Source: Akkermansia muciniphila (GTDB lineage: Bacteria > Verrucomicrobiota > Verrucomicrobiia > Limisphaerales > SXTU01). Taken from it: a stretch of 64,000 bases of DNA. The stretch is taken from assembly GCA_945874145.1 (NCBI GenBank), contig CAMCFN010000004.1, positions 5,407-69,406 of the forward strand. The letters run 5' to 3'. The translations under genes were made by a program, and so were the position numbers. Shown here one piece after another: positions 1-46,901 of this stretch (within the stretch, counting starts at the first letter, position 1; the number at the start of each line of letters is the position of its first letter). The notes under the pieces are model-generated. The model was given only the letters and a program-made list of their open reading frames with translations. It did no database searches and was not told where the DNA came from.

Positions 1-97
1 CGGGGTAGCGCCCCTCGGCTGCCGGTCGGAACAGGTAGGTCCGCATCGGGCCGGCGGGCGTGGGAAGGTCCACAGCTTCAGAGTCGCGGATAATCAT
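1..97 (-). CDS. 5' end (32 codons) of a dienelactone-hydrolase-like gene that runs out of the window
   Basis: ATG at 97..95 on the minus strand. Translation MIIRDSEAVDLPTPAGPMRTYLFRPAAEGRYP resembles N-termini of dienelactone hydrolase family proteins. GC-rich third positions. Absent from the ORF track because there is no stop in the window. Confidence 0.4.
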   Translation of the reverse strand, partial: MIIRDSEAVDLPTPAGPMRTYLFRPAAEGRYP

Positions 98-214
98 GTC
101 GCCGCGTTGTAGGGGAGCTGGCCGGTGACGGCCAGCCCAAACGCCCACTTCCCGCAATCGGGGCCGCACGCGGAAGAACCTTGTGAATAGCCCTTCATAA
201 CCCCGCCTCTAAAA

Positions 215-2746
215 ATGCGTCGCCACTCACTTGCTGCAATGCCTAGTGCCATCCATCGCCATTGGTTTCCTCGCGTCGGGCTGGGCTTGCTTGCGTTTGT
301 CCTGCCGTTCGTCGCAGAGCCTATTTTTGCCGCCGAAACTCGCATTCATCCGCTGCCGCCGCTGCATGAGCGCATTGATGCGCTCATCGAGTCCGAGTTT
401 GCCGGGCCGTTGACGCCGCCAGCTAGCGACGCGGATTTTCTACGGCGCGCATATCTCGATCTCACCGGCCGGATTCCGGCTTGGGACGAGGCCGACCGGT
501 TCCTGCTCGACGCCTCTGGCCAAAAGCGGTCGCGGCTCGTGGACGGACTGCTCGCGACGCCGCAGCATGCGCGGCACCTCGCGACGTTTTTCGATGTGAT
601 GTTCATGGAGCGGCTGGCTGAGAAGCATGTGAAGGTGGCCGACTGGCAGCAGTTCCTCTTCGCCGCCTGTCTCACCAACCAGCCTTACCACGGCCTCGTT
701 CGTGAAATCCTCGCCGCCGACAGCGCGAACGAAAGGACCCGCGTGGCCAGCCGCTTCCAACTTGATCGGGAGGCCGATCCGGCCGCGCTCACGCGCGACA
801 CTGGACGCGTCTTTTTCGGCATGGACCTCTCTTGTGCGCAATGCCACGACCACCCGAACGTCGCGGACTATCTCCAGCGCGACTATCACGGCCTCTTCGC
901 CTTCTTCAACCGCACCTATCTCTTCACGCGCGACAGCGACAAGAAGGCGTTCATTGCGGAAAAGGCCGAGGGCGACGTGACGTTCACCTCGGTTTTCACC
1001 AAGGAAACCGGGGCCACCCGCCCGCGTCTGCCGGGCGCTGCGCAACTCCCGGAGCCAGCGCCACCGCGCGGTGCCGAGTATCTGGTGCCACCCGACCCGA
1101 AGAACAAAAACCTTCGGCCCGTGCCGCAACACAGCCGCCGCGCCGAGCTGGCCAAGGCTGCCACGGAGACGAACCACCGCGCCTTCAATCGCAACATCGT
1201 GAACCGGTTGTGGGCCATGCTGATGGGCCGCCCCCTCGCCGGTCCGGTGGACGAACTGCATTCCGCGAACCCGCCCGCCTATCCCGCGCTGCTGGACTTG
1301 CTCGCCCGTGAATTCGCCGCGAGCGGTTACGACACCCGGGCCTTCCTGCGCGAGTTGGCCTTGACGCGGGTTTACGGCCGCAGCTTTGAGCTGCCGACGG
1401 CGATCGGTTCGCCGCGCGGGTTGGCGGCCACTTGGATTCCCGTGCTGGAAAACCGCCACCGGCAGGTGACCAACGAAGTGGCTTCCGCCGAGGTGTTCGT
1501 GAGGGAGGTGCGCGATCGCATCGCCGCGCAGCGGAAGGTTGCGCAACCAGTTGCAGACGAGCTGGCGAAGACCAATGCAGTCATCACCGAGGTGCGCAAA
1601 GCCTGCGACCCGGCGATCAATGCGCACCGCGATGCTGAGCGCGATTTGGTTCGGAAACGCGATGGCTTGAAGTCCGTGCAAGCCGCGCAGGCGGGGTTGG
1701 CTCAAGCGTTGGACAAATTGCCCGGCGACAAGGAGATCGTCGCCAGCGCGGACAAGCTCAAAGCGCGCGTCACCGAGTTGAACAAAGAGATCGAGGCGGC
1801 GGCGAAGGACGTGACGACGAAGGACACTGCCGCCAAGCCGTTGCGGGAAAAGCTCGCCGCCGCCGAGGCCACGGCGACTGCCATCCGCACCCGCTGGGCG
1901 GCCGAGGATCAAACGGCTGCGAAGCTCGACGCGGATCTCAGCACTGCGCTCACGCGCTGGCAGGACGCCAAGGCGGATGCCCGGCACCTTGAGCTGCGGC
2001 TGGAAACGGCCCAGACGCTGGTCGAGACCGACCGGCTGCGGGCCGAAGTTGAGCAGTTGCAGGGCAGCTTGGTGCGAGCCGTCCGTCCGGGTGTGACCTC
2101 CGCCCGGTCCGTCGCGCTGGAAGCGAAAGCGGATGTGCAGACGAAGGCCTTGAAGGAGGCCACGGACAAGCTCACGGGCGTGCTGGAAAAGTCCTTTGCC
2201 GTCGGCACCTTGACGCCGCTCACCCCGGAGCAACTGGCGTGGAGCATGATGCGCGCGGCGGGAGTGGTGGACGCCCACGAGGCCGCCGGCGCGGCCGAGT
2301 TCGACAAGAAAAACCCACCGACCACCGCGAACCAAAGCGATCCGGCGTTACCCGCCGAGCGCGCGAAGTTTGCGGAGCAATACACGTGGGACAAGCTCAA
2401 GGGCGGCGCGGCGGGCTTTGCGCCTTTCTTTGCCGCCGGTGCGGGGGAGCCGCAGGACGCCTTCTTCGCCACGGCGGATCAGGCGTTGTTCCTCAACAAC
2501 GGCAGCATGATGCGGAGCTGGCTCGCGCCGTCCGCCGACAACCTCACTGCACGGCTGGGCAAGCTCACCGACGCCGGTGCGCTGGCGAAGCAGCTCTATC
2601 TCAGCGTGCTTACGCGCTGGCCGACGGAGGCTGAAGTTGCGGCGGTGCAGAAGCAACTGGCGGCGCGGGAGAAGGATAAGCCCGCCGTGGTGCAGGAACT
2701 CGCTTGGGGTCTGCTGACCTCGGCGGAATTCCGGTTCAAGCACTGA
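215..2746 (+). CDS. DUF1549/DUF1553 (PSD1-type) secreted protein with a central coiled-coil insert
   Basis: 843-aa ORF with a hydrophobic signal-like N-terminus. DUF1549-type motifs RRAYLDLTGRIPAWDE and SCAQCHDHPN. An Ala/Glu/Lys/Arg-rich coiled-coil segment spans roughly aa 400-640. DUF1553-type C-terminus ends LLTSAEFRFKH. Confidence 0.85.
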   Translation: MRRHSLAAMPSAIHRHWFPRVGLGLLAFVLPFVAEPIFAAETRIHPLPPLHERIDALIESEFAGPLTPPASDADFLRRAYLDLTGRIPAWDEADRFLLDASGQKRSRLVDGLLATPQHARHLATFFDVMFMERLAEKHVKVADWQQFLFAACLTNQPYHGLVREILAADSANERTRVASRFQLDREADPAALTRDTGRVFFGMDLSCAQCHDHPNVADYLQRDYHGLFAFFNRTYLFTRDSDKKAFIAEKAEGDVTFTSVFTKETGATRPRLPGAAQLPEPAPPRGAEYLVPPDPKNKNLRPVPQHSRRAELAKAATETNHRAFNRNIVNRLWAMLMGRPLAGPVDELHSANPPAYPALLDLLAREFAASGYDTRAFLRELALTRVYGRSFELPTAIGSPRGLAATWIPVLENRHRQVTNEVASAEVFVREVRDRIAAQRKVAQPVADELAKTNAVITEVRKACDPAINAHRDAERDLVRKRDGLKSVQAAQAGLAQALDKLPGDKEIVASADKLKARVTELNKEIEAAAKDVTTKDTAAKPLREKLAAAEATATAIRTRWAAEDQTAAKLDADLSTALTRWQDAKADARHLELRLETAQTLVETDRLRAEVEQLQGSLVRAVRPGVTSARSVALEAKADVQTKALKEATDKLTGVLEKSFAVGTLTPLTPEQLAWSMMRAAGVVDAHEAAGAAEFDKKNPPTTANQSDPALPAERAKFAEQYTWDKLKGGAAGFAPFFAAGAGEPQDAFFATADQALFLNNGSMMRSWLAPSADNLTARLGKLTDAGALAKQLYLSVLTRWPTEAEVAAVQKQLAAREKDKPAVVQELAWGLLTSAEFRFKH

Positions 2747-2848
2747 CCACCGGTGCCGCTCCTTCCAGCGCGGAGAAAAATGGCCCTGCCAAGGCAAGAA
2801 AGCGAATTCATCCCCGCCCCCCGCAGTCTGATACCCCACAGCCCGCTT

Positions 2849-4138
2849 ATGAAGCCTTGCCAATACGCCTGTAATTCGGCCGACCACGTCATCGCCCGGC
2901 GCAATTTCCTCGGCAGTCTTGCGCTCGGTGCGGGCGTCGTGGGTGGTCTTGGCACCTTCGCACAGCCATCCGTGTCCGCCGCGCTGGCCAGGGATCAGAA
3001 GCGGATGCTCGTCATCAACATGCACGGCGGGCTTTCCCAGTTGGAGAGCTGGGATCCCAAACCGGGCACCGACACGGGCGGGCCGTTCCGCGCCATTCCC
3101 ACCAGCGTGCCCGGCCTGCACATCAGCGAACTTCTTCCGCACACGGCGAAGGTGATGCACCACCTCGCCGTCGTGCGGAGCATCAACACCAAGAACGACG
3201 ACCATGGCAAGGGCAGCTACATGATGGTCACGGGCCGTCGCAAGATGCCGGGCCAGAGCTACCCGGAAATTGGTGCGGTCGTCGCCAAGTGCCTGGATTC
3301 CCCTGCCCAGAGCCTGCCCGGCCACATCCGCATCACGGCGGGCGGCGGCGGCGGACGCAGCGCGGACTCCGCCTACCTCGGTCCGAAATACGCCAGCATC
3401 TCGCTCGATGGTGGCAAGCCCCCGCAGAACACCACCAAGCCCGAAACCCTGACCGACGTTTCACTCGCCGAGCAGAATGCCTTCCGCCGCCTGGCCAACG
3501 ACCACTTCCTCTCCCGCCGCCGCACGGCGATGACCGATGCCTACGTGCAAAGCTACGAGCAGGCGCTGGAGCTGATGAAGCAGCGCGAAGTCTTCGAGTT
3601 GAGCAAGGAGCCGGAGAAAGACCACGACCGCTACGGCAAACATGACTTCGGCCGGCACTGCCTCATGGCGCGGCGGCTGTTGGAGAAAGGCATCTCCTTC
3701 GTGCAGGTGTCGCACTCCAACTACGATACGCACAACGAGAACTTCAACTTTCACTTCGAGCAGGTGGGCGAGTTCGACAAGCCCTTCGCCACGCTCATCA
3801 CGGACCTGCACGAGCGCGGGATGCTGGAGAACACGCTGGTCGTGGTGCTCTCCGAGTTCGGGCGCACGCCGCGCATCAACCAGTATTACGGACGCGACCA
3901 CTGGGGCAAGGCGTGGAGCGTCTGTCTGGGCGGCGCGGGCCTCCAGCGGGGTGCAATCATCGGTGCGACCAACGCCAACGGCACCGAGGTGAAGGAACGC
4001 GAAGTGGACTGCGGCCATCTCTTCCACACCTACCTGCGCGCGCTGGGCCTCAGTTCCAAGTCGAGCTTTGACGTGGCCGGCCGTCAGGTGCTCATGGCTG
4101 ATCCGGCGTGCGGGCCGATCAAAGAATTGCTGGCGTAG
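2849..4138 (+). CDS. DUF1501 family protein (sulfatase-like fold) with twin-arginine leader
   Basis: Tat motif ARRNFLGSLALGAG. DUF1501-type blocks GGLSQLESWDPKPG, NDDHG, SEFGRTPRINQYYGRDHW. The frame opens at 2753, but ATG 2849 gives a normal Tat leader. Confidence 0.85.
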   Translation: MKPCQYACNSADHVIARRNFLGSLALGAGVVGGLGTFAQPSVSAALARDQKRMLVINMHGGLSQLESWDPKPGTDTGGPFRAIPTSVPGLHISELLPHTAKVMHHLAVVRSINTKNDDHGKGSYMMVTGRRKMPGQSYPEIGAVVAKCLDSPAQSLPGHIRITAGGGGGRSADSAYLGPKYASISLDGGKPPQNTTKPETLTDVSLAEQNAFRRLANDHFLSRRRTAMTDAYVQSYEQALELMKQREVFELSKEPEKDHDRYGKHDFGRHCLMARRLLEKGISFVQVSHSNYDTHNENFNFHFEQVGEFDKPFATLITDLHERGMLENTLVVVLSEFGRTPRINQYYGRDHWGKAWSVCLGGAGLQRGAIIGATNANGTEVKEREVDCGHLFHTYLRALGLSSKSSFDVAGRQVLMADPACGPIKELLA

Positions 4139-4206
4139 CTTCGCGCGGCGGCGCGGCCCACTCGTGAGTTGAAAACATTTGCCGGAAGCGGTTCATTTCC
4201 ATCGCC

Positions 4207-4449
4207 ATGAACTTCAAACAGCAAGACCTCCGCGACTTGGTTCTCCACGCTCCATTCCAAGCCTTCCGGTTGCATCTGTCCGATGGCAAACAACTCAAGG
4301 TTCCCCATCCTGACTTTGCCTTGCCGGGGGCCAGCTTGCTTGTCGTCGCCAATGAGCTGCCCAACGGTGCCCCGGGTGATGTGAACCTGATTTCCTACGA
4401 ACACATCGATCGGGTGGAGTTGCTGCCCAAGCGTTCGGTTAAAGTGTGA
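4207..4449 (+). CDS. hypothetical small protein (80 aa)
   Basis: ATG-initiated ORF 68 nt after the DUF1501 stop. Its stop overlaps the GTG of the next ORF (GTGA). No recognisable family. Confidence 0.45.
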   Translation: MNFKQQDLRDLVLHAPFQAFRLHLSDGKQLKVPHPDFALPGASLLVVANELPNGAPGDVNLISYEHIDRVELLPKRSVKV

Positions 4450-4874
4450 AGCCTGACTTCAAAACCGCCGCCGTTGCCACTGAAGCGCAGAGCCGCTTCA
4501 GTCAGGCGCGTCCTCTCACGGCGAAGATGACGGCGGTCACTGGGAGTCTGACCGCCTTGCTGCTCCTCTGGCATCCGTTGTCCGTGGTTCAATTTGTTAC
4601 AGGCATCTTGATCGGCGTTCTCTGCGCTGTGCTCGGTTTGAAGCAGATGACTAGCGACAGAGCCGTCTTCCCAACCTCTTTTCTTCCCCTGTTCGTCCTA
4701 CTCTTCGGAGCGACGATGATAGCGGACGCGAATGAGCCTGAATCTTCAGCCTTGTCGCTGGCCCATTCGCAATCGCTCATTTTGGCCGCTTGCGGGGCTG
4801 TGATGCTCATCTTCGAGAAACCCGTCCTTCGCCGCTTTGCAAAAGAAACGGCCGCTGAAACTCGCCGAACGTGA
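4446..4874 (+). CDS. hypothetical membrane protein (142 aa)
   Basis: GTG start in a GTGA overlap. About three hydrophobic helices (LTALLLLWHPLSVVQFVTGILIGVLCAVLGL, FLPLFVLLFGATMI, LILAACGAVMLIF). GC about 55%, below its neighbours. The first 13 codons mimic the start of the following WD40 gene. Confidence 0.45.
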   Translation: MKPDFKTAAVATEAQSRFSQARPLTAKMTAVTGSLTALLLLWHPLSVVQFVTGILIGVLCAVLGLKQMTSDRAVFPTSFLPLFVLLFGATMIADANEPESSALSLAHSQSLILAACGAVMLIFEKPVLRRFAKETAAETRRT

Positions 4875-5887
4875 AACCCGACTTCAAAGCCGCGCACGTC
4901 GCCGCCGAGTTCGACCACACGTCGCCGCTCATCACCTGCCGCTTTGACCCCACGGGCAGGTTCGTCTTCGCCACGGCCGAGGATCGCGCCATCCTGCGCT
5001 GGGATCTGGCCGACCCGAAGAAGAAGACCGTGTTCAGCGCGCATGATTCCTATGTCTGGGCGGTTGCGTTGTCGAAGGATGGCCAGATCCTTGTGAGCGC
5101 GGGCGGCGATGACACGCTCATCTGGTGGCCCGCCACGGCGGAGAAGCCTGAACCGCAGCGCAAGGTCGCGGCGCACAAGGGCTGGATTCGCGCCCTCGCC
5201 ATCAGCCCGGACGGCAAGCTCCTCGCCAGCGGTGGCAACGACCGGCTCGTTAAACTCTGGAATCTGGCCGACGGGAAAATGGTGCAGGAGTTCTCCGGCC
5301 ATGAGCTGGACGTTTACAGCGTCACGTTCCATCCCGACGGCAAATTTCTCCTCTCCGGCGACCTCATGGGCAAGGTGCACCAGTGGGATCTCGCCACGGG
5401 CAAGTCCGTGCGCGTGCTCGATGCAAAGGAGCTGCACCATTATGACAAGGGACAGCAAGTTCACTTCGGCGGCATGCGCGGCCTTGCCATTTCGCCGGAC
5501 CGGAAGAACCTCGCGTGCGGCGGGCTGCACAAGGCCACGAACCCCCTTGGCAACGTCCACGAGCCCATCGTCCAGCGCTACGACTGGGAAACCCACAAGT
5601 TGGTGAAGACGCACCTCGCCGAGGGTTTGACTAACTCGACCGTGTGGAACTGCCTCTTCCATCCCGACGGCACGCTCATCGCCGGTTGCGGCGGCGGCAG
5701 CGGCGGGCACCTGCTCTTCTGGGGCAAGGACGACGAGAAGCCCGCGCCCGCCTTCAAGCTCCCCGACATGGCCCGCGAAATGGATTTGCACCCCGACGGC
5801 CTCCAGATCGCCACGGTCCACTACGCCAAGAAACTGCGCCTGACCAAGCTCGCGCCCAAGCCCCCGGCACCCGCGAAGAAGGCGTGA
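4871..5887 (+). CDS. WD40 repeat (beta-propeller) protein, no signal peptide
   Basis: Repeated WD-like blocks (RWDL, LIWW, VKLWNL, VHQWDL). GTG start in a GTGA overlap with the upstream ORF. Paralogous to 40654..41655. Confidence 0.85.
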   Translation: MKPDFKAAHVAAEFDHTSPLITCRFDPTGRFVFATAEDRAILRWDLADPKKKTVFSAHDSYVWAVALSKDGQILVSAGGDDTLIWWPATAEKPEPQRKVAAHKGWIRALAISPDGKLLASGGNDRLVKLWNLADGKMVQEFSGHELDVYSVTFHPDGKFLLSGDLMGKVHQWDLATGKSVRVLDAKELHHYDKGQQVHFGGMRGLAISPDRKNLACGGLHKATNPLGNVHEPIVQRYDWETHKLVKTHLAEGLTNSTVWNCLFHPDGTLIAGCGGGSGGHLLFWGKDDEKPAPAFKLPDMAREMDLHPDGLQIATVHYAKKLRLTKLAPKPPAPAKKA

Positions 5888-5968
5888 GGCCGAACTCCAC
5901 AGTTGAAGGACCACTACCCGAGGCACATCTTACGTGTGGTGACATGAACTGAAACGCACGTTCACGCT

Positions 5969-6127
5969 ATGAAAGAAACCGTCCGTCTCTCCCGTCCGCC
6001 CAAGCCCGCCATGAAGGAAACCGTTCGCCTCGTCATGCCGCCGGCCAAATACGGCCCCGAGGAGCGGGCCAAACACGACGACTGGCTGAAGAAGCAGAAG
6101 TCGCCCGTCGAGCCGCCGCCGCAGTGA
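5969..6127 (+). CDS. possible small ORF (52 aa) with an internal tandem duplication
   Basis: MKETVRLSRPPKPA-MKETVRLVMPPAKYGPEERAKHDDWLKKQKSPVEPPPQ. GC-rich third positions. Below the ORF-track size cutoff, with no homolog recognised. Confidence 0.3.
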   Translation: MKETVRLSRPPKPAMKETVRLVMPPAKYGPEERAKHDDWLKKQKSPVEPPPQ

Positions 6128-6198
6128 CCGACTGCAAGGAAGCGGCTCGGTGGGGTTGCCCGGCAAGCTAGCCGTCTAAGCCCACCGCTTCTGAAGCA

Positions 6199-7131
6199 AT
6201 GTTGCAGCCCCTTGCCGAAGACTTCCTCTTCTCCCTGCGCCACGAGCGCGGGCAGGCGGAGCACACGCAACGCACCTACAAGGCGTTGCTGGACAAATTT
6301 ATCAACTGGGCGGAGCCCCGGGGGATCGAGCACTGGGGCCAGGTGCAGTTGAACCAACTCACCGAGTTTCTCCAGCACGAGTGTGACCGTAAGCTGGCCG
6401 ACGCACCAAAGGAGTCACAGGCGAAGCTCAGCCCCTCCAGCCTCTACCTGCAAATCGCCGCCCTGCGGGCTTTTTACCGCTGGGCCGAAACCGAGAAAAA
6501 GCTGGCCGCAAACCCGGCCGAGAACCTGTCGCTGCCGCGCCGTTGGAAGTTGCTCCCCAAGTCGCTGCCCATCGCGGAAATTGTTCAAATTCTTAAGCCG
6601 TTGCCCGTCAACGAACCTTGGGACCTATGTGATCAGGCGATCCTTGAACTCGCCTACGCCAGCGGCCTGCGGCTCGCGGAGCTGCGCAACTTGCGGCTGG
6701 AGCAGTTGCACCTGGAAGCTGGCTTTGTCACCGTGATTGGCAAGGGCAACAAGGAACGCGTGGTCCCGGTCGGCAAATTTGCGGCGGCCGCGCTGAACCG
6801 TTACCTCGAGGTCGCGCGGCCCAAGCTCGTCAGTCCGAGATCGCCGGCGAATGTCTTTCTCACCCGGCGGGGCACGGCCTTCGCGCATGTGACCATGTGG
6901 GCGCACATCAAGCAGCGGGTGCGGCGCGCGGGCATCGAGCGTCTCGTGACGCCACACATGCTGCGGCACAGCTTCGCCACGCATCTGCTGGAGCACGGCG
7001 CGGACCTGCGTGTGATTCAGGAGCTGCTGGGCCATTCGAGCATCAGCACCACGGAGGTTTACACGCACGTCGCCGGTCAGCGGCTGAGGGAGGTGCATGC
7101 GGAACACCATCCACGGGCCAAATTCTCATGA
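6199..7131 (+). CDS. tyrosine site-specific recombinase, XerC/XerD family
   Basis: 310 aa. C-terminal catalytic block HMLRHSFATHLLEHGADLRVIQELLGHSSISTTEVYTHV. N-terminal SAM-like core-binding region. Confidence 0.9.
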   Translation: MLQPLAEDFLFSLRHERGQAEHTQRTYKALLDKFINWAEPRGIEHWGQVQLNQLTEFLQHECDRKLADAPKESQAKLSPSSLYLQIAALRAFYRWAETEKKLAANPAENLSLPRRWKLLPKSLPIAEIVQILKPLPVNEPWDLCDQAILELAYASGLRLAELRNLRLEQLHLEAGFVTVIGKGNKERVVPVGKFAAAALNRYLEVARPKLVSPRSPANVFLTRRGTAFAHVTMWAHIKQRVRRAGIERLVTPHMLRHSFATHLLEHGADLRVIQELLGHSSISTTEVYTHVAGQRLREVHAEHHPRAKFS

Positions 7132-7206
7132 TCCCTGCAGGCTGCCAAAATGTTGCCCTGCCAACGACCGCTTGAAACCCTCCTTGGCGTTGTCCATTCT
7201 CCGCCC

Positions 7207-7992
7207 ATGATTACCCATCGCTTGGTCCCGCTGCTCCGTTTCGCACTCCTGCTCTCGCTCGTCTCCGTGTCCGCCGCCGCCGATTCAGCCATCGGCGTTG
7301 GAGCCAAGCCCATCGCCGGGGCGGAGGTGCTCATTGATGGCTCGCGCAAGCTGCTAGACGACAAGTGGACTTACTGGCAGGGACCGCGCTTCGCCTCCTC
7401 GCTGCCCATCAAGTGGAAGATCGTTGAGGATCCAGTGGACAAAGGCGGCACCGTGGTGATGACCGACGACCCGGTTGCGCTCGGCGGCAAATATGGCACC
7501 GCAGACATCGTGACCAAGAAGGCCTATCGCGACTTCCGGCTGCACATCGAGTTTTGCGTCATGAACCCGCGCGGCAACAGCGGCGTGTATCTCCAGAACC
7601 GCTACGAGATCCAGATCATGGAGGGTGACAAAACCAAGCACGGCATGGGCGCGGTGATTAACGAGACCGAGTCGCCCTACCATGCGTTCGCCGGCCTCGG
7701 GAAGTGGAACAGCTACGACATCGTCTTCCGCGCCGCGCGCTTCAAGGACGGCCAGCGCACTGAGAAGGCGATGGTCTCCATGTATTTTAACGGTCAGAAG
7801 GTCCACAAGAACATCGCAATCAACCAAGTCTGGGGCGGGGCAAACTCCGGTGTGGACGGCGGCAACGACAAGGGCCAAGGCATCACCGACACGCCGCAGG
7901 GCCTCAAGCTCCAATGCGAAGGCCACGACGTGCGGTATCGCAACAGCTGGATCAAGGAGCTGGATCTGAAGGAAGCGAACACGGACTTCTGA
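7207..7992 (+). CDS. DUF1080 (3-keto-disaccharide hydrolase / lectin-fold) secreted protein
   Basis: Signal peptide MITHRLVPLLRFALLLSLVSVSAAA. Motifs NSGVYLQNRYEIQI and LKLQCEGHDVRYRNSWIKEL are typical of DUF1080. The track ORF opens at 7150. Confidence 0.8.
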   Translation: MITHRLVPLLRFALLLSLVSVSAAADSAIGVGAKPIAGAEVLIDGSRKLLDDKWTYWQGPRFASSLPIKWKIVEDPVDKGGTVVMTDDPVALGGKYGTADIVTKKAYRDFRLHIEFCVMNPRGNSGVYLQNRYEIQIMEGDKTKHGMGAVINETESPYHAFAGLGKWNSYDIVFRAARFKDGQRTEKAMVSMYFNGQKVHKNIAINQVWGGANSGVDGGNDKGQGITDTPQGLKLQCEGHDVRYRNSWIKELDLKEANTDF

Positions 7993-11453: not shown

Positions 11454-13580
11454 TCAAGCCTTTGCCGGAGCTTCCTTGTCGCGCGCCGCAAAGACGGGAC
11501 CAGGCCGACGCGCCTCCAGCACGATGCGAAAGCCGACGATGTCCACCCGATGACCAGGGGAGTTCATTAGCCGGGCGGAAGAGAGCAGCATGTGCCGCTT
11601 GGCGCTGTGCCAGGATGCGCCACGCAGGACGCGGCAATTTTGGCCGCTGTCATAAGCATCCTGGCACCACTCCCAGACATTGCCGCCGAGGTCGTAAAGA
11701 CCGTGGCGGTTCGCCGGAAAACTGCCCACGGGCGAGGTGTAATCGAAGCCGCTGGGACGCAGTTCGGAGTCATAGTTGCCCGCGCCTTTCGGCGGCGGCC
11801 ATTGGGTGCCCCACGGATAGACATTGCGAATCTTGCCGTCGCGGTCGGCGGGCGTCGCGCCCGTTTCCTTGGGCAGATCCACTGCGGCGCTCCATTCGAG
11901 ATCCGTGGGCAGGCGGTAGGTGTCACGTTCGCCCAGCCGCCCGGCCTTGCGCTCGCGCTCGGTGAGCCACTGGCAAAAGGCGCGGGCATCGTCCCAACTG
12001 GTGTTCACCGCAGGGTGGGTCGGTTCCTGGCGGAACTTGGGCCGCGTCCACTTGTGCTGCTGCTCTCTCGCGAAGACGTCGTAGTCCTGCACCCGGACCG
12101 GCCAGATGCCAAAAAGCACCGTGGTGCCCGGCACCGGCACGAAGCGCACGCCGAGCGAGTTGGTGTAAGCCTCGCGGTTTAGCTGGGCACGGATCGCGCC
12201 GAGGCGGTTCCGCCGTCCCCAGTGGACCTGCACGGTCTTGGTCAACGGTTCGTAGAGGCTGGGATCAAGGGTGAGTTGGTAAGTGCCGGGCTCCAGCAGA
12301 TCGCCGGGGCGCACCACGCGGCCATTGAAAAACGCCCAAGCTTTCTCGGGGTCTTCCACGAGGTGTCCGCCCGCTTCGATTTGGAAATCCACGCGGGTCC
12401 GTGCGCGTAATGACCTCCCGAAGCGTTTGGCCCCTTGCACTAGCAGCACGATCGCCAGTCCGGGGCCGGCCACCGGCAGCAGTTGCTGGTGGAATCGCGC
12501 GCATAGCAACGCGACGGCGGCGACGCCGGCCAGCTCGCCGATCGCCCGTGTGCGCGCGGCGGCAAGTCGGGGTTCGAGGCCATGGCGCAAGTGGTCACAT
12601 TGCCGAACGAGCCGCTTGAACAGGGAATGTCCGTCACGCGCGTAGTCGGAGTTTTTCCATTCCTCAAGTCCGCCATGGAACTTGACGAGCCGGTCGTGGA
12701 AGACCTGGAGTCGGGCTTCCAGCTCCACTTTGCGGGGCGCAACTGTCCACGGCTGCGCGAAGGGCGCGCGCCACGGGGTTTCCAGTTCCACTTGGAGCTG
12801 GGTGAACTTGGTCTCCACTTCGCGGAGGTTTTTCCGCCAGTCCTCGATGGTTTCGTTGATGCTGTTGTAGGGCAGGTCAGCAAACTCCGTGGTGCATTCG
12901 GCCAGCAACGCTGCCGCCCGAGCGAAATCGCCGGCTTCCGCCAGCGCCAGGGCCTCCTCCAGCACCACGCTCTGATGGGTGTGCAGCTCCAGCAGCTCGG
13001 TGCCCGCGTCCCGCACACTGGCGAGGTGGTTGAACACCTGCGCATGCAGCTCGCCTTCGCCGTGCGCAAAGCCACACAGGGCAATGCGGTCCGCCAGCAA
13101 GAGTTTGGAATCAGGCCGGGCGGCCTGGGCGAAAGCGGGCAGTTCGGCGGCCAGGTCAATTGTCCCGTTGTCCATCACGAGATCTTTGTTCAGAAAACCC
13201 GCCGCCAGCCGGTGCTGGTGCTCCACCAGGTTGCGCAGAGCCAGCTCGGCAGCGGCTTGCCCCTCGACAAGCTGCTGGCGGGCGAGCGGGTTTTTCTTGG
13301 GGTCCAGCAGCGGCAGGGCCAGCTCCAACTGCTCCTTCACAAAATCCCCGATGGCTTGCAGCACGCGCTCCAGGCGCTCGACCTCGCGGTTCACGAAGCC
13401 AGCCGGATCGTCTGGGACATCCCCATCGGCGCGGTGGAGCGCCAGATATTCCGCCAGCTCGTTTTGAAACTCGCGGTGCGCGATCAGATCGGCTGTGTCG
13501 TGAAAGGTGTTGCTGGCATTCCGAAGGCTGCCGGCGGTCGCCTGCAAAACGGCCAGCTTACGGGTGAGGTCGAGGTTCAT
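11454..13580 (-). CDS. FGE-sulfatase (SUMF1-like) domain protein with large helical N-domain and TM hairpin; catalytic Cys pair absent
   Basis: C-terminal YPWG..NYD, NRHGLYDLGGNVWEWCQD and RVLRGASW are FGE-fold blocks. Central hydrophobic pair AIGELAGVAAVALLCARF / LLPVAGPGLAIVLLVQGA. ATG 13580 chosen because it forms an ATGA overlap with the upstream small ORF; the track ORF extends to 13757. Confidence 0.75.
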   Translation of the reverse strand: MNLDLTRKLAVLQATAGSLRNASNTFHDTADLIAHREFQNELAEYLALHRADGDVPDDPAGFVNREVERLERVLQAIGDFVKEQLELALPLLDPKKNPLARQQLVEGQAAAELALRNLVEHQHRLAAGFLNKDLVMDNGTIDLAAELPAFAQAARPDSKLLLADRIALCGFAHGEGELHAQVFNHLASVRDAGTELLELHTHQSVVLEEALALAEAGDFARAAALLAECTTEFADLPYNSINETIEDWRKNLREVETKFTQLQVELETPWRAPFAQPWTVAPRKVELEARLQVFHDRLVKFHGGLEEWKNSDYARDGHSLFKRLVRQCDHLRHGLEPRLAAARTRAIGELAGVAAVALLCARFHQQLLPVAGPGLAIVLLVQGAKRFGRSLRARTRVDFQIEAGGHLVEDPEKAWAFFNGRVVRPGDLLEPGTYQLTLDPSLYEPLTKTVQVHWGRRNRLGAIRAQLNREAYTNSLGVRFVPVPGTTVLFGIWPVRVQDYDVFAREQQHKWTRPKFRQEPTHPAVNTSWDDARAFCQWLTERERKAGRLGERDTYRLPTDLEWSAAVDLPKETGATPADRDGKIRNVYPWGTQWPPPKGAGNYDSELRPSGFDYTSPVGSFPANRHGLYDLGGNVWEWCQDAYDSGQNCRVLRGASWHSAKRHMLLSSARLMNSPGHRVDIVGFRIVLEARRPGPVFAARDKEAPAKA

Positions 13581-13882
13581 CCGAAGTGGCGCTTGAGCTG
13601 GCGCAAGGTCGCCACCGCATCCGCCATGCTCTGGCGCGAGACGACGACTTGCTGTTCGCGGGCGGCCTGCGCCTCCGTGGCGGCCTGCGCCTCGGCCAGG
13701 CGAGCTTGCTCGGCAGCGAGCTGCCGCTGGGCCATCGCCCGTTGCTCCTCCAAGCAAGTTTCCAGGACACGGAGCTGCCGGCGTTGCAGCGTGAGAAGTT
13801 GCATCAGGAGCACGACCATCCCGCCGACAAGGGCGAGCACAAGCATCCCGAGGTAGGGGTTCAACTGGTCCAGCGTGAGCAT
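13577..13882 (-). CDS. small membrane-anchored coiled-coil protein (101 aa)
   Basis: N-terminal TM LGMLVLALVGGMVVLLMQLL, followed by a Q/A/E/R-rich heptad-like helix. Its stop overlaps the ATG of the FGE-like gene (ATGA). Confidence 0.55.
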   Translation of the reverse strand: MLTLDQLNPYLGMLVLALVGGMVVLLMQLLTLQRRQLRVLETCLEEQRAMAQRQLAAEQARLAEAQAATEAQAAREQQVVVSRQSMADAVATLRQLKRHFG

Positions 13883-13960: not shown

Positions 13961-14878
13961 CTACTTGGAGAGCGCCACGATGTAGCGCTGAAACCGCACG
14001 GTCTCTTCCGCAAGGTTCAGGCTGTTGTAGATGTGATGAAGGTTGGAGCAGACCCTTAGCAGCATGCGTCGCGGTGTGACGGACGCCAGAAAGCCGTCAT
14101 GAAACGCGTGCCCGGACTGGATCAGGAACTTGATGCAGTCCCCCTTGGTCATCAGCTTCCCCTTGCGGAAGGGATCGATGAACACCTCGCCGCGCGAGGT
14201 TTGAAACCGGCAGATGAAGTGCCCCGGCATGCCGATGCCCGTCACCGGCAGGCGCAGCCGCCGCGCCACGGCGAGATACACGATGGACAGGCTGATGGGG
14301 TTGCCCGTCCGGCGATCCATCACCCGGTTCAGGTAGCTGTTGTCCGGGTCCGAATAATCCTTCTCGTTGCCCGTGAAACCCAGGTCCGTGAAGAGGAAGT
14401 AGTTGATGGTCGCCAGAATCCGGTCCGGAGCCGCGCCGAAATCCACCCGCGTCCGCAGGTCCGCCGCATAACTGTCAAACAGCGCCGAGTAGGCGAGCGC
14501 GTTGATGTTCGGGTATTGCGTCTGGCACAGGAGCCACACGGCCTGTTCCAGATCGAAGTCCTCGCCCCGCGTCAGGCAGAAGGCGAGAAAGCGGTTGTCC
14601 GCCGCGCCTCGCTCGAAATGATCGACAATCTCCTGCGCCCGCCGCCGCAGCACCGGGTCGCTGCTCAGCGTGTGCGCCCGCAGCCAGTCCCGCGCGGGTT
14701 GGCCTTGCTCGATGATTTTGGACCGGATGATCTGGTAGATGGCGGGGTCGTCATCCGTCAGGAGGGTCAACAGCGCGGCGCGCTGGCCCTCGGTAAGGGC
14801 CGCCGGTGCGGGCGCGCTGGTGACGGGCAGATTCACGGCTACAGGCCGGACGGTGGCAAAGTCTGGCCACTGATTCAA
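13961..14878 (-). CDS. transglutaminase-like / SirB1 (UPF0162) family protein
   Basis: NYFLFTDLGFTGNEKDYSDPDNSYLNRVMDRRTGNPISLSIVYLAVARRLRLPVTGIGMPGHFICRF is the characteristic SirB1-type core. Confidence 0.7.
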   Translation of the reverse strand: MNQWPDFATVRPVAVNLPVTSAPAPAALTEGQRAALLTLLTDDDPAIYQIIRSKIIEQGQPARDWLRAHTLSSDPVLRRRAQEIVDHFERGAADNRFLAFCLTRGEDFDLEQAVWLLCQTQYPNINALAYSALFDSYAADLRTRVDFGAAPDRILATINYFLFTDLGFTGNEKDYSDPDNSYLNRVMDRRTGNPISLSIVYLAVARRLRLPVTGIGMPGHFICRFQTSRGEVFIDPFRKGKLMTKGDCIKFLIQSGHAFHDGFLASVTPRRMLLRVCSNLHHIYNSLNLAEETVRFQRYIVALSK

Positions 14879-14958: not shown

Positions 14959-16302
14959 ATGAAATCCACCGCGCGCCTCGCCTTTCTGTTGTGGCTGGCC
15001 GGGCTCCTGGCGGCCGGCAGCACTGCCGCCGCGAAGCCGAATCTCATCCTCTTCATGGCCGACGACCTCGGCTACGAGACCATCGGTGCGAACGGTGGCA
15101 CGAGCTACAAGACGCCCGTGCTAGACAAGCTGGCCGCCACCGGCGCGCGCTTCACGCACTGTTTCGTGCAGCCGCTCTGCACCCCGACGCGCGTGCAGCT
15201 CATGACCGGCCAATACAACGTGAGGAACTACATCAACTTCGGAAACATGGACCCGAAGCTCACCACCTTCGGCAACCTCCTCAAGTCCGCCGGCTACGCC
15301 ACGTGCATCACCGGCAAATGGCAGCTCGGCCGCGACGTGGACCTGCCGAAGAAGTTCGGCTTCGACGAGCATTGCCTCTGGCAGCACACGCGCCGCCCGC
15401 CGCGCTACGCGAACGCCGGCCTGGAAATCAACGGCGTCGAGAAGGACTACACGAACGGCGAATATGGCCCCGACCTCGTCAACGACTACGCCCTCGACTT
15501 CGTCACGCGGCACAAGGACAAGCCCTTCTTCCTCTACTACCCGATGATGCTCACGCACGACCCCTACCAGCCCACCCCCGACAGCAAGGATTGGAACCCG
15601 AAGGCACAGGGCGAGCAGGTGAACCGTGACCCCAAGCACTTCGGCGACATGGTGGAATACATGGACAAACTCATCGGCAAGCTCGTCACGCGGCTCGATG
15701 AACTGAAGCTACGCGACAACACGCTGCTCCTCTTCGTCGGCGACAACGGCACCGGCCGCGGCACGCGCTCAATGATGGGCGACAAGGTGGTCATCGGCGG
15801 CAAGGGCACGACAACCGAGTTCGGCATGCATGTCCCGCTCATCGCGAACTGGCCGGGCAAACTCGCCGCCGGAAAAGTCCACGCTGACCTCGCCGACAGC
15901 ACGGACTTCCTGCCGACGCTGTTGGACGCCGCCGGGGCGAAAGCGCCTGCCGGACTAAAGTTCGACGGTCGCAGCTTCCTGCCACAGGCGCGCGGGGAGA
16001 AAGGTCAGCCGCGCGAATGGGTTTACTCCTGGTATTCGCCGCGGCAGGGCGAGGACATGACGGTGCGCGAACTGGCCTTCAACCACCGCTTCAAGCTCTA
16101 CCGCTCCGGCGATTTCTTCGACCTCGAAAAGGACATCGCGGAGAAACAGCCGCTCCAAGTCGCGTCACTTACCGGCGAGGCCGCCGCCGCCGCGAAGCTG
16201 CTGCAAGGCGCGCTCGACCAGTTCAAGGACGTGCGACCAGTGAACCTCGACCAACCCGGCGCGAAGACCGACAAAGCCAAGGCGAAAAAGAAGGCGAAGT
16301 GA
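14959..16302 (+). CDS. Cys-type sulfatase (arylsulfatase A family)
   Basis: Signal peptide. [13 protein letters not shown]. Sulfatase signature [14 protein letters not shown] (C-x-P-x-R). Confidence 0.9.
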
Positions 16303-23319: not shown

Positions 23320-25914
23320 ATGCGCCTTGCCCCGATTCTCATTCTGCTGGTCTTCGCCCAAGGGCTCCAAGCGGTGCCCGATTTCGAGCGCGAGGTGCGC
23401 CCGTTTCTCAAGCAGAACTGTTACTCCTGCCACGATGCGAAGAAGGCGAAGGCGGGCTTCCGCATTGATGAATTGGGCACGGATTTCCTCAGCGGCAAGA
23501 CGGCGGACGCCTGGCACGAGGTCATCAACCAAATCAACAGCGGCGAGATGCCGCCGAAGAAAGAGCCGAGGCCGGATGCGAAGGCGGCGTTTGCCGTGGT
23601 GGAATGGGTGGGCGCGAATCTGAAGAACGCGGAGCGGCAGGCGCGCATGGCGGGCGGGCGCATCCTGATGCGGCGGCTGAACCGGCAGGAGTATGCGAAC
23701 ACCGTCGGCGATTTGTTCCGGCTCGACCCGAATTTTGTCGAGAAGCTGAAACGCGAACTGCCCGCCGATGGCAAAGCGGAGGGCTTCGACCGCATCGGCA
23801 GCGCGCTGTTTTTCGACCAGACGCAGATGCTCGGCTATCTCGACTGGGCCGGGCAGATTGCCCGCGAGGCGGTGCAGAGCGCGCCGCCGAAGGCGGAGAC
23901 CTATGTCTATGAGGCGGAGAAGCACCTCAACAGAAACGAAGGCCCGACCGTAGAAGTGGGGCAGGCCATCGACCATCAGATTCCCCTCGGCCCCACGTTC
24001 TACGACAAGAAAGCCACGGGCGTCGAGATTTGGGCGGGCCACGGCGGCAAGCCTGATGAAGATAATAAGACGTGGGCGATGGTGCCGTATGGACCGCGCC
24101 CGGACCTGACGAAGCTGGTCACGCAGGACGGCTACTATCGAGTGCGCGTTCATGCCGGGGCCTCGACTGGCGCGCGGGGGACTCCGGTGGTGATGCGCCT
24201 CACCTACGCCGTCGGCACGCCGCTGGAGAGCATCCATGACATCACCATCGAGGGAACTTTGGAGAAACCAGGTGTGGCGGAGACGCTGGTGTTCCTGCGG
24301 GCCGGGCAGCCCGACCAGCAGAAGCCCTTGGTGCCGTCTTGGAATGGCATCAACAACCTGCGCGTCAACAATCCCGAATGGGGTGCCGTCCACCTGCGTT
24401 GGCTCATATCGCAGGGCAAACTCTCAAAAGCTGCGGCTGCACGTGACGATGCCGAAGTCGCACGACTCAAGGTCGAGCGCGAGCAGGTGCTCAAGGACTT
24501 GAATGCCTTCACCGGGCCGCGCTGGATTCCGCATCCGACGCACAACCCGGCCACCGCGCCGCGCCTCTTCCTCGATAAAATCACGGTGGAAGGTCCGCTG
24601 CCAAAGGAGTGGCCACCGGCGAGCCATGCCCTGCTCGGACTCGATGACAAAACCCCGCAGGACGAAAACGGCCTGCGCTCGGTGTTCGCATCGCTGCTGC
24701 CGAGAGCGTATCGTCGGCCCGTCGAAAAAGCGGAAGTGGATAAGCTCGTGCGCATCGCCGCCGGTGCGATGCAGCGCGAGAAGATACCCTTTCCCGATGC
24801 GCTCCGACTTGGCCTGCAAACGATGCTTTGCTCGCCGGGCTTTGTTTTCATCCAGGAGCCGCAACCGCGCGCTGCTGCTGCCGCGAAGGGCACGCGTCAG
24901 CTGAACGACTTCGAACTCGCGAGCCGCCTTTCCTATTTCCTCTGGAGCAGCCAGCCGGACGACGCGCTGCTCGCGCTCGCGGACAAAGGCACCCTGAAGC
25001 AGCCCGCGACGCTCCGCGCCCAGGTCACGCGCCTGTTAGCGGATGCGAAGAGCCGGCGTTTCGTTGAGAATTTCGCCGGTCAGTGGCTCGATGTGGAGCA
25101 GTTCGGCAGCGTGGAGCCAGCGAAGGAATACAAGAGCTATGACAACGCGCTCAAGACCGCGAGCCGCGAGGAGCCGCTGGCGTTTTTCCAGCAGGTGCTC
25201 ACGGAAAATCTGCCGGTCGCGAGCTTCCTCGACTCCGACTTCCTCGTCATCAATGAACGCCTCGCGCGGCACTACGGCATCGAGGGCGTGAGCGGCGAGA
25301 CGTTTCAAAAAGCCGCGCTCAAGCCGGAGCATCATCGCGGCGGCGTCCTCGGCATGGCCGGGCTGCTGACCTTGCTGGCTGATGGCACCCGCACACTGCC
25401 AGTGCGGCGTGGGGCGTGGGTTTTGGAGAAGCTGCTCAACGACCCGTCACCGCCTCCGCCGCCGAACGCGGGCGACATCCAGCCGAATACCGCTGGCGCG
25501 AAACTCACCGTCCGCGAGCGCCTGCAAAAGCACCGCGACGAGCCGAGCTGCGCGAGTTGCCATGCCAAGCTCGACCCCTACGGCCTCGCATTGGAGAACT
25601 ACGACGCCATCGGCGCGTGGCGCGAGCGCCAAAATGGCGAGGGCATCGGCGGAAAAAATGCGCCGGTCATTGATGCCAGCGGCGCGCTCAAATCCGGACG
25701 CGCGTTCCAAGACCTCACCGGCTACAAGGCCGGATTGATGGCCGAGCAGGACAAGTTCATCCGCGCCTTCACGGAAAAGCTGCTCACCTACGCGCTCGGC
25801 CGCCCCGTGGGCTACGTGGACCACGCCACGATCGAAACCATCCTGAAATCCGAGCCGCGCCTGCAATCGCTCGTGCAAGCGGTCGTCGCCTCCGAACCTT
25901 TTCAAACCAAGTAA
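23320..25914 (+). CDS. DUF1587/DUF1592/DUF1595/DUF1588/DUF1585 multi-domain protein with N-terminal CxxCH (planctomycete cytochrome c-like) motif
   Basis: FEREVRPFLKQNCYSCHD, MRRLNRQEYANTVGDLF, LASRLSYFLWSSQPDD, FVENFAGQWLDV, SCASCHAKLDPYGLALENYDAIGAWR. Confidence 0.85.
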   Translation: MRLAPILILLVFAQGLQAVPDFEREVRPFLKQNCYSCHDAKKAKAGFRIDELGTDFLSGKTADAWHEVINQINSGEMPPKKEPRPDAKAAFAVVEWVGANLKNAERQARMAGGRILMRRLNRQEYANTVGDLFRLDPNFVEKLKRELPADGKAEGFDRIGSALFFDQTQMLGYLDWAGQIAREAVQSAPPKAETYVYEAEKHLNRNEGPTVEVGQAIDHQIPLGPTFYDKKATGVEIWAGHGGKPDEDNKTWAMVPYGPRPDLTKLVTQDGYYRVRVHAGASTGARGTPVVMRLTYAVGTPLESIHDITIEGTLEKPGVAETLVFLRAGQPDQQKPLVPSWNGINNLRVNNPEWGAVHLRWLISQGKLSKAAAARDDAEVARLKVEREQVLKDLNAFTGPRWIPHPTHNPATAPRLFLDKITVEGPLPKEWPPASHALLGLDDKTPQDENGLRSVFASLLPRAYRRPVEKAEVDKLVRIAAGAMQREKIPFPDALRLGLQTMLCSPGFVFIQEPQPRAAAAAKGTRQLNDFELASRLSYFLWSSQPDDALLALADKGTLKQPATLRAQVTRLLADAKSRRFVENFAGQWLDVEQFGSVEPAKEYKSYDNALKTASREEPLAFFQQVLTENLPVASFLDSDFLVINERLARHYGIEGVSGETFQKAALKPEHHRGGVLGMAGLLTLLADGTRTLPVRRGAWVLEKLLNDPSPPPPPNAGDIQPNTAGAKLTVRERLQKHRDEPSCASCHAKLDPYGLALENYDAIGAWRERQNGEGIGGKNAPVIDASGALKSGRAFQDLTGYKAGLMAEQDKFIRAFTEKLLTYALGRPVGYVDHATIETILKSEPRLQSLVQAVVASEPFQTK

Positions 25915-27489: not shown

Positions 27490-28650
27490 ATGAAACCACT
27501 GCCTCTCCTCATCGCCACCCTCCTGTTCGCCGCCACACTGTCGGTCCAGGCCGCCTCGCCGCTCACGTCCGCCATCGAAGCCGCGCTCACCAGGGAGATC
27601 GCCGCCCACCACGCCGCCGGCGTCGTCACGCTCGTGATGCAGGACGGCAAGGTGATTCATCACGCTGCCACCGGACTCGCTGACCGCGACCAAAAGCTCC
27701 CGATGAAGGCCGATTCACTTTTCTGGATCGCCTCCATGACCAAGTCCGTGGCCGTCACCACGATCATGACGCTCGTGGACGAGGGCAAGCTCTCGCTCGA
27801 CGTTCCCGCGTCGCAGTGGCTGCCCGAGCTGGGCAAGGTCAAGCTCGCCAGCGGGCAGCCGCCCGCCCGCGCCATCACACTGCGTGACCTGCTGTCGCAC
27901 ACGGCGGGCATCGCGTTTCCGCCGCGCAAGTCCACCGATGGAGCGCACTCCCTCAAGGGCTACGTGGCGGAGTTGCTGCGCGCGCCCCTCGCCTTCGAGC
28001 CGGGTTCGGCCTACGAATACGGCTTTGGGATCACCGTCGCGGGCCGCATCGCGGAGCTGGTTTCCGGCAAGCCCTTTGAAGTGCTGATGCACGAGCGCGT
28101 CCTCGACCCGCTGGGCATGAAGGAGACCACGTTCCATCCCGACGCCCGCCAGCGCCCGCGCATCGCCCGCACTTACAAATCCGCCGAGGGCGGCGGCCTC
28201 GCACTGGCCAACAACGTCTTCGTCACGTCCGACCCCGCCGTGCGGCGCATGGCCGAGCCCTCGGGCGGGCTGTTCTCCACGGCGGCGGACATGGCCAAGT
28301 TCTACCAGATGATTCTCAACGGCGGCGTGCATGAGGGGAAACGCATCGTGTCGGAAAAGGCCGTCGCCGAGATGACGCGCCCGCACAAGGCCGGCGGCAA
28401 GACTCTGAACTACGGTCTCGGCTGGCAGACCGGCAACGGCGAGAGGCCGGCCGTTCCTGGTTTTTCCAAAACCGCCTTCGGCCACGGCGGCGCGTTCGCC
28501 ACGCACGGGTTCATTGATCCCGAGCGCAAACTGGTCACGGTGTTCATGGTGCAGAACGTCTTGGTGACCGGCAGCGGCGATGCGCGCAAGGCCTTCCATG
28601 ATGAAGTCAACCGCGCGCTGAAAAGCGGCGAAACAAGCTCGGCCCAGTGA
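27490..28650 (+). CDS. serine hydrolase, beta-lactamase (class C/PBP4-like) family
   Basis: Signal peptide MKPLPLLIATLLFAATLSVQA. S-x-x-K motif ASMTKSV, YEYGFG, HGGAF (KTG-equivalent region). The track ORF opens at 27430. Confidence 0.85.
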   Translation: MKPLPLLIATLLFAATLSVQAASPLTSAIEAALTREIAAHHAAGVVTLVMQDGKVIHHAATGLADRDQKLPMKADSLFWIASMTKSVAVTTIMTLVDEGKLSLDVPASQWLPELGKVKLASGQPPARAITLRDLLSHTAGIAFPPRKSTDGAHSLKGYVAELLRAPLAFEPGSAYEYGFGITVAGRIAELVSGKPFEVLMHERVLDPLGMKETTFHPDARQRPRIARTYKSAEGGGLALANNVFVTSDPAVRRMAEPSGGLFSTAADMAKFYQMILNGGVHEGKRIVSEKAVAEMTRPHKAGGKTLNYGLGWQTGNGERPAVPGFSKTAFGHGGAFATHGFIDPERKLVTVFMVQNVLVTGSGDARKAFHDEVNRALKSGETSSAQ

Positions 28651-35372: not shown

Positions 35373-35474
35373 GTCGCAACGCATTCCAATGAATATAGCT
35401 TTCGCGTTAATTCCGCCGACCACGGCTGCAACAGCGGACCACGGGTTTGGCATTTTGGTATGCGTCAACAATTC

Positions 35475-46696: not shown

Positions 46697-46864
46697 GTGG
46701 ACAAACGCCCGCCTGACTGGAGGCGAGTTGGTGCCGATTTCAGCAATGCCGACTAGGGGCTTTGCACGGGTATTCAAGCGGGCGCCGGGTTGATCAGCGC
46801 TGGCAAAGGGACCCGTCCACTGCCAGTCGGGATACCGTCTCCGCAAAGCTCCGACAAAACCCGG

Positions 46865-46892
46865 TTGACAGCCAAAACTTGAGTGGTATGAC
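46865..46892 (+). promoter_or_regulatory. sigma70-like promoter candidate for the GntR gene
   Basis: TTGACA (46865-70), a 16-nt spacer ending in TGg (extended -10), then TATGAC (46887-92), 9 nt before the ATG. This would give a near-leaderless mRNA. GT-N3-AC (GGTATGACC) overlaps the -10. Confidence 0.3.
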
Positions 46893-46901
46893 CTCACACC
46901 A

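Follow-up and report, generated by a model that had tools for sequence, protein, structure and literature searches.

A putative membrane-anchored two-subunit module with a cysteine-less formylglycine-generating enzyme fold as one of several interchangeable C-terminal domains

A window of 64,000 nucleotides from a Limisphaerales contig (GenBank accession number CAMCFN010000004.1; coordinates 5407 to 69406) carries, on the minus strand, a pair of overlapping genes for a 101-amino acid (aa) protein and a 708-aa protein that ends in a formylglycine-generating enzyme (FGE)-sulfatase fold. The helical N-terminal domain of the large protein and the small protein together are the constant core of a rare family, whose C-terminal domains are of at least seven interchangeable kinds, the FGE fold among them. 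The helical domain of no known family, the small partner and the modular swapping of heads are new, as none of them is described in the libraries searched. The explanation favoured here, with moderate confidence, is that the pair encodes the two subunits of a binding or receptor-like module that is anchored in the membrane and is not an enzyme.

The list of open reading frames (ORFs) for the window included two minus-strand entries, a 767-aa ORF opening with TTG (coordinates 11454–13757) and the 101-aa ORF (coordinates 13577–13882). As all orthologues begin with MN(L/P)xLTRKLA, the start of the large gene was assigned to the orthologue-supported ATG at 13580, giving a protein of 708 rather than 767 aa with the N-terminus MNLDLTRKLAVLQ. 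In the junction sequence, CACTTCGGATGAACCTC, this ATG (13580–13578) overlaps the TGA of the small ORF (13579–13577) as ATGA, in agreement with an earlier reading of the window from its sequence alone (the original prediction). The small ORF is a real gene under purifying selection. Its in-frame dN/dS was 0.20–0.36 for five orthologues, and in the other two frames pN equalled or exceeded pS in 19 of 20 comparisons; the G+C content of the window is 62–68%.

A word-indexed search identified 39 proteins, 38 of them full-length with 41–96% identity, and the labels of these matches, where named, were Verrucomicrobia or Limisphaerales, and otherwise generic or clearly wrong. Clear Limisphaerales orthologues in loci L009, L011, L013, L014, L019 and L023 were found under the titles 'uncultured Klebsiella sp.', 'Klebsiella pneumoniae' or 'Proteobacteria bacterium'. 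Synteny is kept in some of these metagenome-assembled genome records (GTDB/GenBank), and the titles look mislabelled.

The wider family was examined using a profile of the N-terminal domain (aa 1–340), which found only 124 proteins at E ≤ 1e-3 among 1.84 billion representatives. Of the longer proteins among these 124, 55 were scanned with Pfam, and the domains located after the N-terminal domain were FGE-sulfatase (13), PEGA (9), RCC1 (6), Sel1 (6), WD40 (4), ankyrin (3) and PDZ (2), with no enzymatic domains among the 55. As the same N-terminal domain precedes these differing C-terminal domains, the helical domain is the constant part. Only the closest relatives have flanking genes in common, namely one for a transglutaminase-like protein upstream and one for a ROK kinase downstream. 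Elsewhere the flanking genes are different, and the accessory genes beside distant members showed no similarity to one another. As the flanks vary beyond the closest relatives, it is the pair that forms the conserved unit.

The ATGA overlap and a homologous ORF of ~101 aa were present in all 15 orthologue loci from GTDB genomes that include a complete junction, and in a further three contigs found by protein look-up. A hidden Markov model (HMM) of the small protein detected a homologue directly upstream in six of seven distant relatives looked up (E 1e-16 to 1e-40), and these six bear ankyrin, Sel1, FGE, triple PEGA plus FGE, RCC1 and PEGA heads. The small and large genes overlap by 4 nt in five of the six (L026, L028, L030, L031 and L032). 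A small homologue was also found upstream in 8 of 8 metagenome loci, which are short and were recovered in a scan with a narrower subgroup of the N-terminal domain. The exception is the WD40 member in L025 (coordinates 4282–7709), which is preceded, again with a 4-nt overlap, by a gene for a 240-aa DUF4388/PatA_N protein in place of the small subunit.

Fusions of the small and large proteins were found in at least four cases (P0038, P0040, P0053 and P0077). P0038 and P0040 are large proteins with the small protein joined to their N-terminus, with a BLASTP match of E 2e-4 over the hydrophobic helix, and in an AlphaFold2 (AF2) model of P0038 the helix matching the C-terminus of the small subunit (residues 154–175) runs directly into the N-terminal domain (residue 182 onward). 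The proposal in the original prediction that the two genes form a two-protein unit is therefore upheld by the conserved adjacency, the ATGA overlaps and the fusions. The other two fused proteins both lack a transmembrane (TM) segment; P0053 (612 aa) lacks a C-terminal binding domain and has a partly repeated N-terminal domain, which is matched in three stretches, and P0077 (684 aa) has a PEGA domain and an FGE domain with one cysteine in the loop considered below.

The C-terminal FGE-sulfatase fold of the large protein was confirmed by a match to Pfam family PF03781 (aa 506–687; E 2e-32; score 113 bits, cut-off 23.3), which spans only positions 75–254 of the 255 in the profile. The motifs that had been quoted for this fold were all found at the expected places (YPWG at aa 588–591, GLYDLGGNVWEWCQD at aa 627–641, RVLRGASW at aa 650–657 and GASWHSAKRHMLLSSAR at aa 654–670). 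Neither the first 500 aa of the large protein nor the small protein had a match in the Pfam scan. When the 39 sequences were aligned, neither the window protein nor any of the 38 full-length orthologues has a cysteine between RG(A/G)SW and SPGHR, and the only two cysteines nearby are a non-conserved one before RVLRG and that of a family-wide GFRC. The loss of the catalytic cysteine pair that had been claimed for the window protein is thus a property of all 39 sequences, with no cysteine at a shifted position. In place of the catalytic loop is the segment GASWHSxKxHTLLSSARLFNSPGHR, which is almost invariant across the 39 sequences, and the FGE domain as a whole is better conserved than the N-terminal domain (mean identity 79% versus 59% in the orthologue alignment). 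The C-terminal region is therefore not hypervariable in the manner of the variable proteins of diversity-generating retroelements (DGRs). The AF2 model of the FGE domain was poor, with a predicted local distance difference test (pLDDT) score of 30–40.

By sequence, the closest solved structure is SUMF2/pFGE (1y4j; E 2.5e-20), which aligns through aa 694. The true FGEs of human, Streptomyces and Thermomonospora align only to aa ~643, short of the active-site segment. As there is no cysteine at the FGE copper site and the closest relative is SUMF2/pFGE, the sequence indicates that the large protein has no role as a sulfatase maturase. However, three ORFs in the window (coordinates 14959–16302, 31485–32888 and 35460–36998) include the Cys-type sulfatase motifs CTPTR, CSPSR and CSPTR, respectively, and an aerobic FGE would be expected to match PF03781, as the large protein does. 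The motifs agree with the three C-x-P-x-R sulfatases previously noted at 14959, 31485 and 35475, of which only the first was confirmed as a sulfatase by Pfam. Searches of the 64-kb window for a canonical FGE (HMM search) or a radical-SAM anaerobic sulfatase-maturating enzyme (anSME; CxxxCxxC scan) found no credible candidate, which would also suit a maturase function for the large protein. Against this, in addition to the missing cysteines and the truncated alignments, profile positions 1–74 are unmatched, the adjacency to sulfatase genes is not kept in the orthologue loci and the real maturase may lie elsewhere in the genome. It is thus extremely improbable that the large protein is the FGE for these sulfatases, and the original prediction had already argued against this; the cysteine-free clade, the SUMF2-like sequence and the published precedents described below all support that view.

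An FGE fold without the cysteines is in itself common and unsurprising, and PF03781 covers enzymes besides FGE. The large protein might instead be an enzyme of another chemistry, an oxidase or oxygenase of the PvdO or EgtB type, that uses the His/Ser/Arg loop at the membrane. The near invariance of this loop, the retention of H658, H663 and H677 in most orthologues and the position of the FGE domain as the best-conserved part of the protein would be consistent with such an activity. However, only H677 is invariant, with H658 and H663 substituted in P0037 and P0038, and a three-histidine metal site in the loop was rejected for this reason. The NCBIfam matches to GldK, PvdO, SenA, OvoA and EgtB were all far under the curated cut-offs (PvdO, 61 versus 500 bits; EgtB, 23.5 versus 360 bits; EgtB, OvoA and SenA together, 23.5–36 versus 360–420 bits), and the DinB_2 domain required by EgtB and OvoA was absent from the Pfam scan of the large protein. 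In the wider family, plainly non-enzymatic repeat domains occupy the same position, which points to an interchangeable binding role, and an alternative chemistry is considered improbable.

The part of the large protein that precedes the FGE fold was examined by structure prediction. An AF2 model built with 39 sequences placed helices over aa 1–394, with pLDDT 80–94 up to ~350, followed by a beta sandwich at aa 396–492 with pLDDT ~80. The helical domain had no match in Pfam (up to E = 10), NCBIfam, a PDB profile search or PADLOC, and no Foldseek match for either AF2 model in the PDB or in BFVD, which holds viral structures; only weak generic matches to spectrin, BAR and CorA proteins were obtained, at E > 0.1. 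The long all-helical N-terminus of no known family that had been described for this protein is thus corroborated. A CorA-like arrangement, in which a basic tail follows a long helix that leads into a TM hairpin, was rejected, as the match probability was below 0.7, no GMN-like motif was found and the TM-score was ~0.13 when normalised by query length and 0.2–0.25 by target length.

The end of the helical region consists of a 50-residue helix (aa 312–362) and a second helix (aa 367–394), which together span two hydrophobic segments, and the pair of hydrophobic helices proposed previously was recovered both in the Kyte-Doolittle scan and in the AF2 model. The beta-rich part that follows was modelled as beta structure. 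However, it is probably a PEGA/transthyretin-like beta sandwich rather than the short linker that had been described. In Foldseek it matched transthyretin-like domains, those of carboxypeptidase D and carboxypeptidase N (CarboxypepD_reg), and teneurin, with a probability of 0.96–1.0 but an E value of ~0.1. This agrees with the score for Pfam PEGA (PF08308), which was below threshold at 16.7 bits against a cut-off of 20.8 (E 0.0068), and with the bona fide PEGA domains found at the same position in relatives.

In most distant members of the family there is one strong TM helix right after the N-terminal domain, and three have none. The single-TM members are likely to be bitopic and receptor-like, with an external binding head. 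As the large protein has no signal peptide, its N-terminal domain is likely to be cytoplasmic. In the Limisphaerales clade, the large protein has two hydrophobic segments of 15–20 residues, which are clearer in P0038 and P0040, and the mean number of Lys and Arg residues over the 39 sequences is 4.9 before the segments, 0.8 in the ~3-residue loop between them and 4.1 after them. The two segments probably form a membrane hairpin, which on the simplest reading of these sequences would bring the PEGA and FGE domains back into the cytoplasm. The small protein adds an uninterrupted hydrophobic run of 18–22 residues, found in 14 of 14 orthologues, followed by a helix rich in Glu, Gln, Arg and Ala. 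The distant homologues of the small subunit are not hydrophobic at the position of this run (maximum Kyte-Doolittle value below ~1.0).

Under the favoured explanation of a two-subunit binding or receptor-like module, the cysteine-less FGE fold would be a head that binds a ligand or a protein, as suggested by the lost catalytic residues, by analogy and by its interchangeability with repeat and binding domains. As the FGE domain is strongly conserved, this head may bind a single partner that is itself conserved. The small subunit would use its conserved C-terminal helix to dock onto the start of the helical domain, since the two are contiguous in the natural fusions, and the probably cytoplasmic helical bundle may be the constant part that serves for output or as a scaffold. 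A single TM helix would part the helical bundle from an extracytoplasmic binding domain in most relatives, in the manner of a bitopic receptor, while in the Limisphaerales clade the hairpin would keep both ends in the cytoplasm and the small subunit would supply a third membrane helix.

Several points weigh against this explanation. The binding role was derived from the loss of catalytic residues together with analogy, and the nearly invariant segment in the FGE domain could form a new active site instead of a surface for binding. As no fold relative of the N-terminal domain could be recognised, its output or scaffolding role is a guess. In the nearest outgroup, P0066, a very similar FGE domain comes with a single hydrophobic stretch, which would place the FGE domain outside in that protein, and the two-segment reading, which puts this domain inside in Limisphaerales, differs from that layout.

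The SUMF2/pFGE protein is a paralogue of human FGE that shares with the large protein the FGE fold and the absence of both catalytic cysteines, and is also its best sequence match in the PDB. However, SUMF2 is a stand-alone soluble protein of the endoplasmic reticulum, whereas in the window pair a 708-aa predicted membrane protein has the fold as its C-terminal domain, and the PEGA-like spacer, the new helical domain and the small partner subunit are all absent from SUMF2. A cysteine-less FGE domain likewise occurs in the Tsi3-type immunity proteins of type VI secretion systems (T6SS), where it acts by protein-protein binding and not by catalysis (10.1101/2021.05.21.445229). Compared at the level of the shared fold, Tsi3 differs in being a single-domain protein encoded beside a T6SS effector, and no T6SS genes were seen at the window pair. 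The ring lipoproteins PorK/GldK of the type IX secretion system (T9SS) likewise make structural use of the FGE fold, and gave the second-best match in both the PDB (E ~5e-14) and NCBIfam (6.8e-20). However, the large protein scored 71.8 bits against the 350-bit cut-off of TIGR03525, it has no lipoprotein signal and no T9SS neighbours, and its architecture is different.

For the FGS (FGE-sulfatase) domains of conflict systems and DGRs, action by binding without the cysteines also has a published precedent (PMC7159879). In conflict systems and caspase homologues these domains are C-terminal binding heads, and they have been found fused to signalling or conflict proteins that include Ser/Thr kinases, caspase homologues and vWA-MoxR ternary systems (PMC7159879, PMC3501461). 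As in those proteins, the non-catalytic FGE fold of the large protein is C-terminal, and WD40, Sel1/TPR and ankyrin domains can take its place on the same N-terminal module. In the window pair, however, the constant module is a 340-aa helical domain with a separate small coiled-coil protein rather than a kinase, caspase, vWA or NTPase, and no conserved NTPase or protease partner is located nearby.

These precedents raise the possibility that the pair is a conflict or anti-phage module, in which the variable C-terminal domain senses a signal derived from an invader or from the envelope, and the helical domain, membrane segments and small partner form a membrane-acting effector or an oligomerising switch in the style of abortive infection. 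A module that stays constant while WD40, ankyrin, Sel1, FGE and RCC1 domains are exchanged on it is the pattern that has been described for conflict systems (PMC7159879). In L028 (coordinates 3–5238), genes for the HmaB methylase (E 1.9e-68) and the HmaC ATPase (E 1.9e-51) enclose, on one strand, a Sel1-type large subunit, a small subunit and a 205-aa ORF without annotation, so that the cassette is embedded in an Hma defence operon. Payne et al. use 'embedded' for placements of this kind, and found that seven of nine such candidates tested defended against phage. In addition, a PemK toxin and an antitoxin are encoded on the flanks of L030, and an HNH nuclease is encoded upstream in L026. However, this defence context comes from three short contigs, and the window gene and its orthologues are located amid housekeeping genes (encoding a ROK kinase, an Mrp ATPase and a transglutaminase-like protein). 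The synteny in close relatives and the range of orthologue identities look like vertical descent, unlike patchy defence genes, and the FGE domain is strongly conserved rather than diversifying. PADLOC-DB v2 contained no match for the large protein or for P0056 and only a chance-level match of the small protein to ZorB (E 0.09), and tblastn against plasmids found no plasmid copy. A conflict function for the pair, although the main rival explanation, is therefore considered unlikely.

The original prediction had treated the fold as a non-catalytic ligand-binding or sensor domain of the kind fused to signalling or conflict-system proteins. The first part of this fits the SUMF2-like sequence and the precedents, and the link to conflict systems is hinted at by distant relatives only. 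It is a possible but doubtful extension that the pair represents an undescribed two-component membrane module with interchangeable sensor heads, of which some members, such as that embedded in the Hma operon, are a new anti-phage or conflict sensor-effector and the Limisphaerales copy is domesticated and vertically inherited. If the hint of a defence role in the Hma-embedded relative were true, a new defence architecture would be added.

Annotation pipelines label the large protein 'formylglycine-generating enzyme family' or 'SUMF1/EgtB/PvdO nonheme iron enzyme', and in sulfatase-rich genomes of the Planctomycetes-Verrucomicrobia (PVC) group a label of the FGE type invites a wrong inference on sulfatase maturation. 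As a delimited and rare two-gene unit, the pair offers a concrete case for structural and genetic work on the coupling, in bacteria, of a recognition domain with a helical assembly close to the membrane. The features of the pair are listed in Table 1.

Table 1. Coordinates of the gene pair, its predicted domains and the adjacent gene in the 64,000-nucleotide window
Feature	Coordinates	Strand	Basis or remarks
Small subunit gene	13577–13882	-	101 aa: short N-tail, hydrophobic helix, E/Q/R/A-rich helix, conserved C-terminal helix SRQSMADAVATLRQLKRHFG
Predicted TM helix of small subunit, aa ~10–31	13790–13855	-	Hydrophobic run in 14/14 orthologues; lineage-specific
Start/stop overlap (ATGA) of small and large genes	13577–13580	-	Junction sequence; repeated in orthologue loci with complete junction
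Large subunit gene	11454–13580	-	708 aa plus stop; full-length orthologues at 41–96% identity
N-terminal all-helical domain, aa 1–340	12561–13580	-	AF2 pLDDT 80–94; no known family; motifs include TRKLAxLQA and PWRAPFAQPW
Two adjoining hydrophobic segments, aa 346–363 and 367–384	12429–12545	-	Kyte-Doolittle scan, AF2 helices; 2–4 polar residues between
PEGA/transthyretin-like beta sandwich, aa ~396–470	12171–12395	-	Foldseek, sub-threshold Pfam PEGA, PEGA domains of relatives
FGE-sulfatase/C-type-lectin-like fold, aa ~476–695	11496–12155	-	Pfam PF03781; PDB match SUMF2 1y4j; best-conserved part of protein
Segment in place of FGE catalytic Cys loop, RGASWHSAKRHMLLSSARLMNSPGHR, aa 653–678	11547–11624	-	Without Cys; nearly invariant in clade
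Transglutaminase-like gene (Transglut_core2, SirB1-related)	13961–14878	same strand, directly upstream	Syntenic only in closest relatives L007, L009 and L022

Elsewhere in the window, giant PSCyt2/PSD1 (DUF1549/DUF1553) proteins, a PSD/PSCyt1-3 protein and a DUF1501 sulfatase-like partner are encoded (coordinates 215–4138, 23320–25914, 28647–31469, 44702–47182 and 50458–53214). Together with the sulfatases, these PSCyt/PSD giants and the DUF1501 protein form a gene set that is typical of the PVC group.

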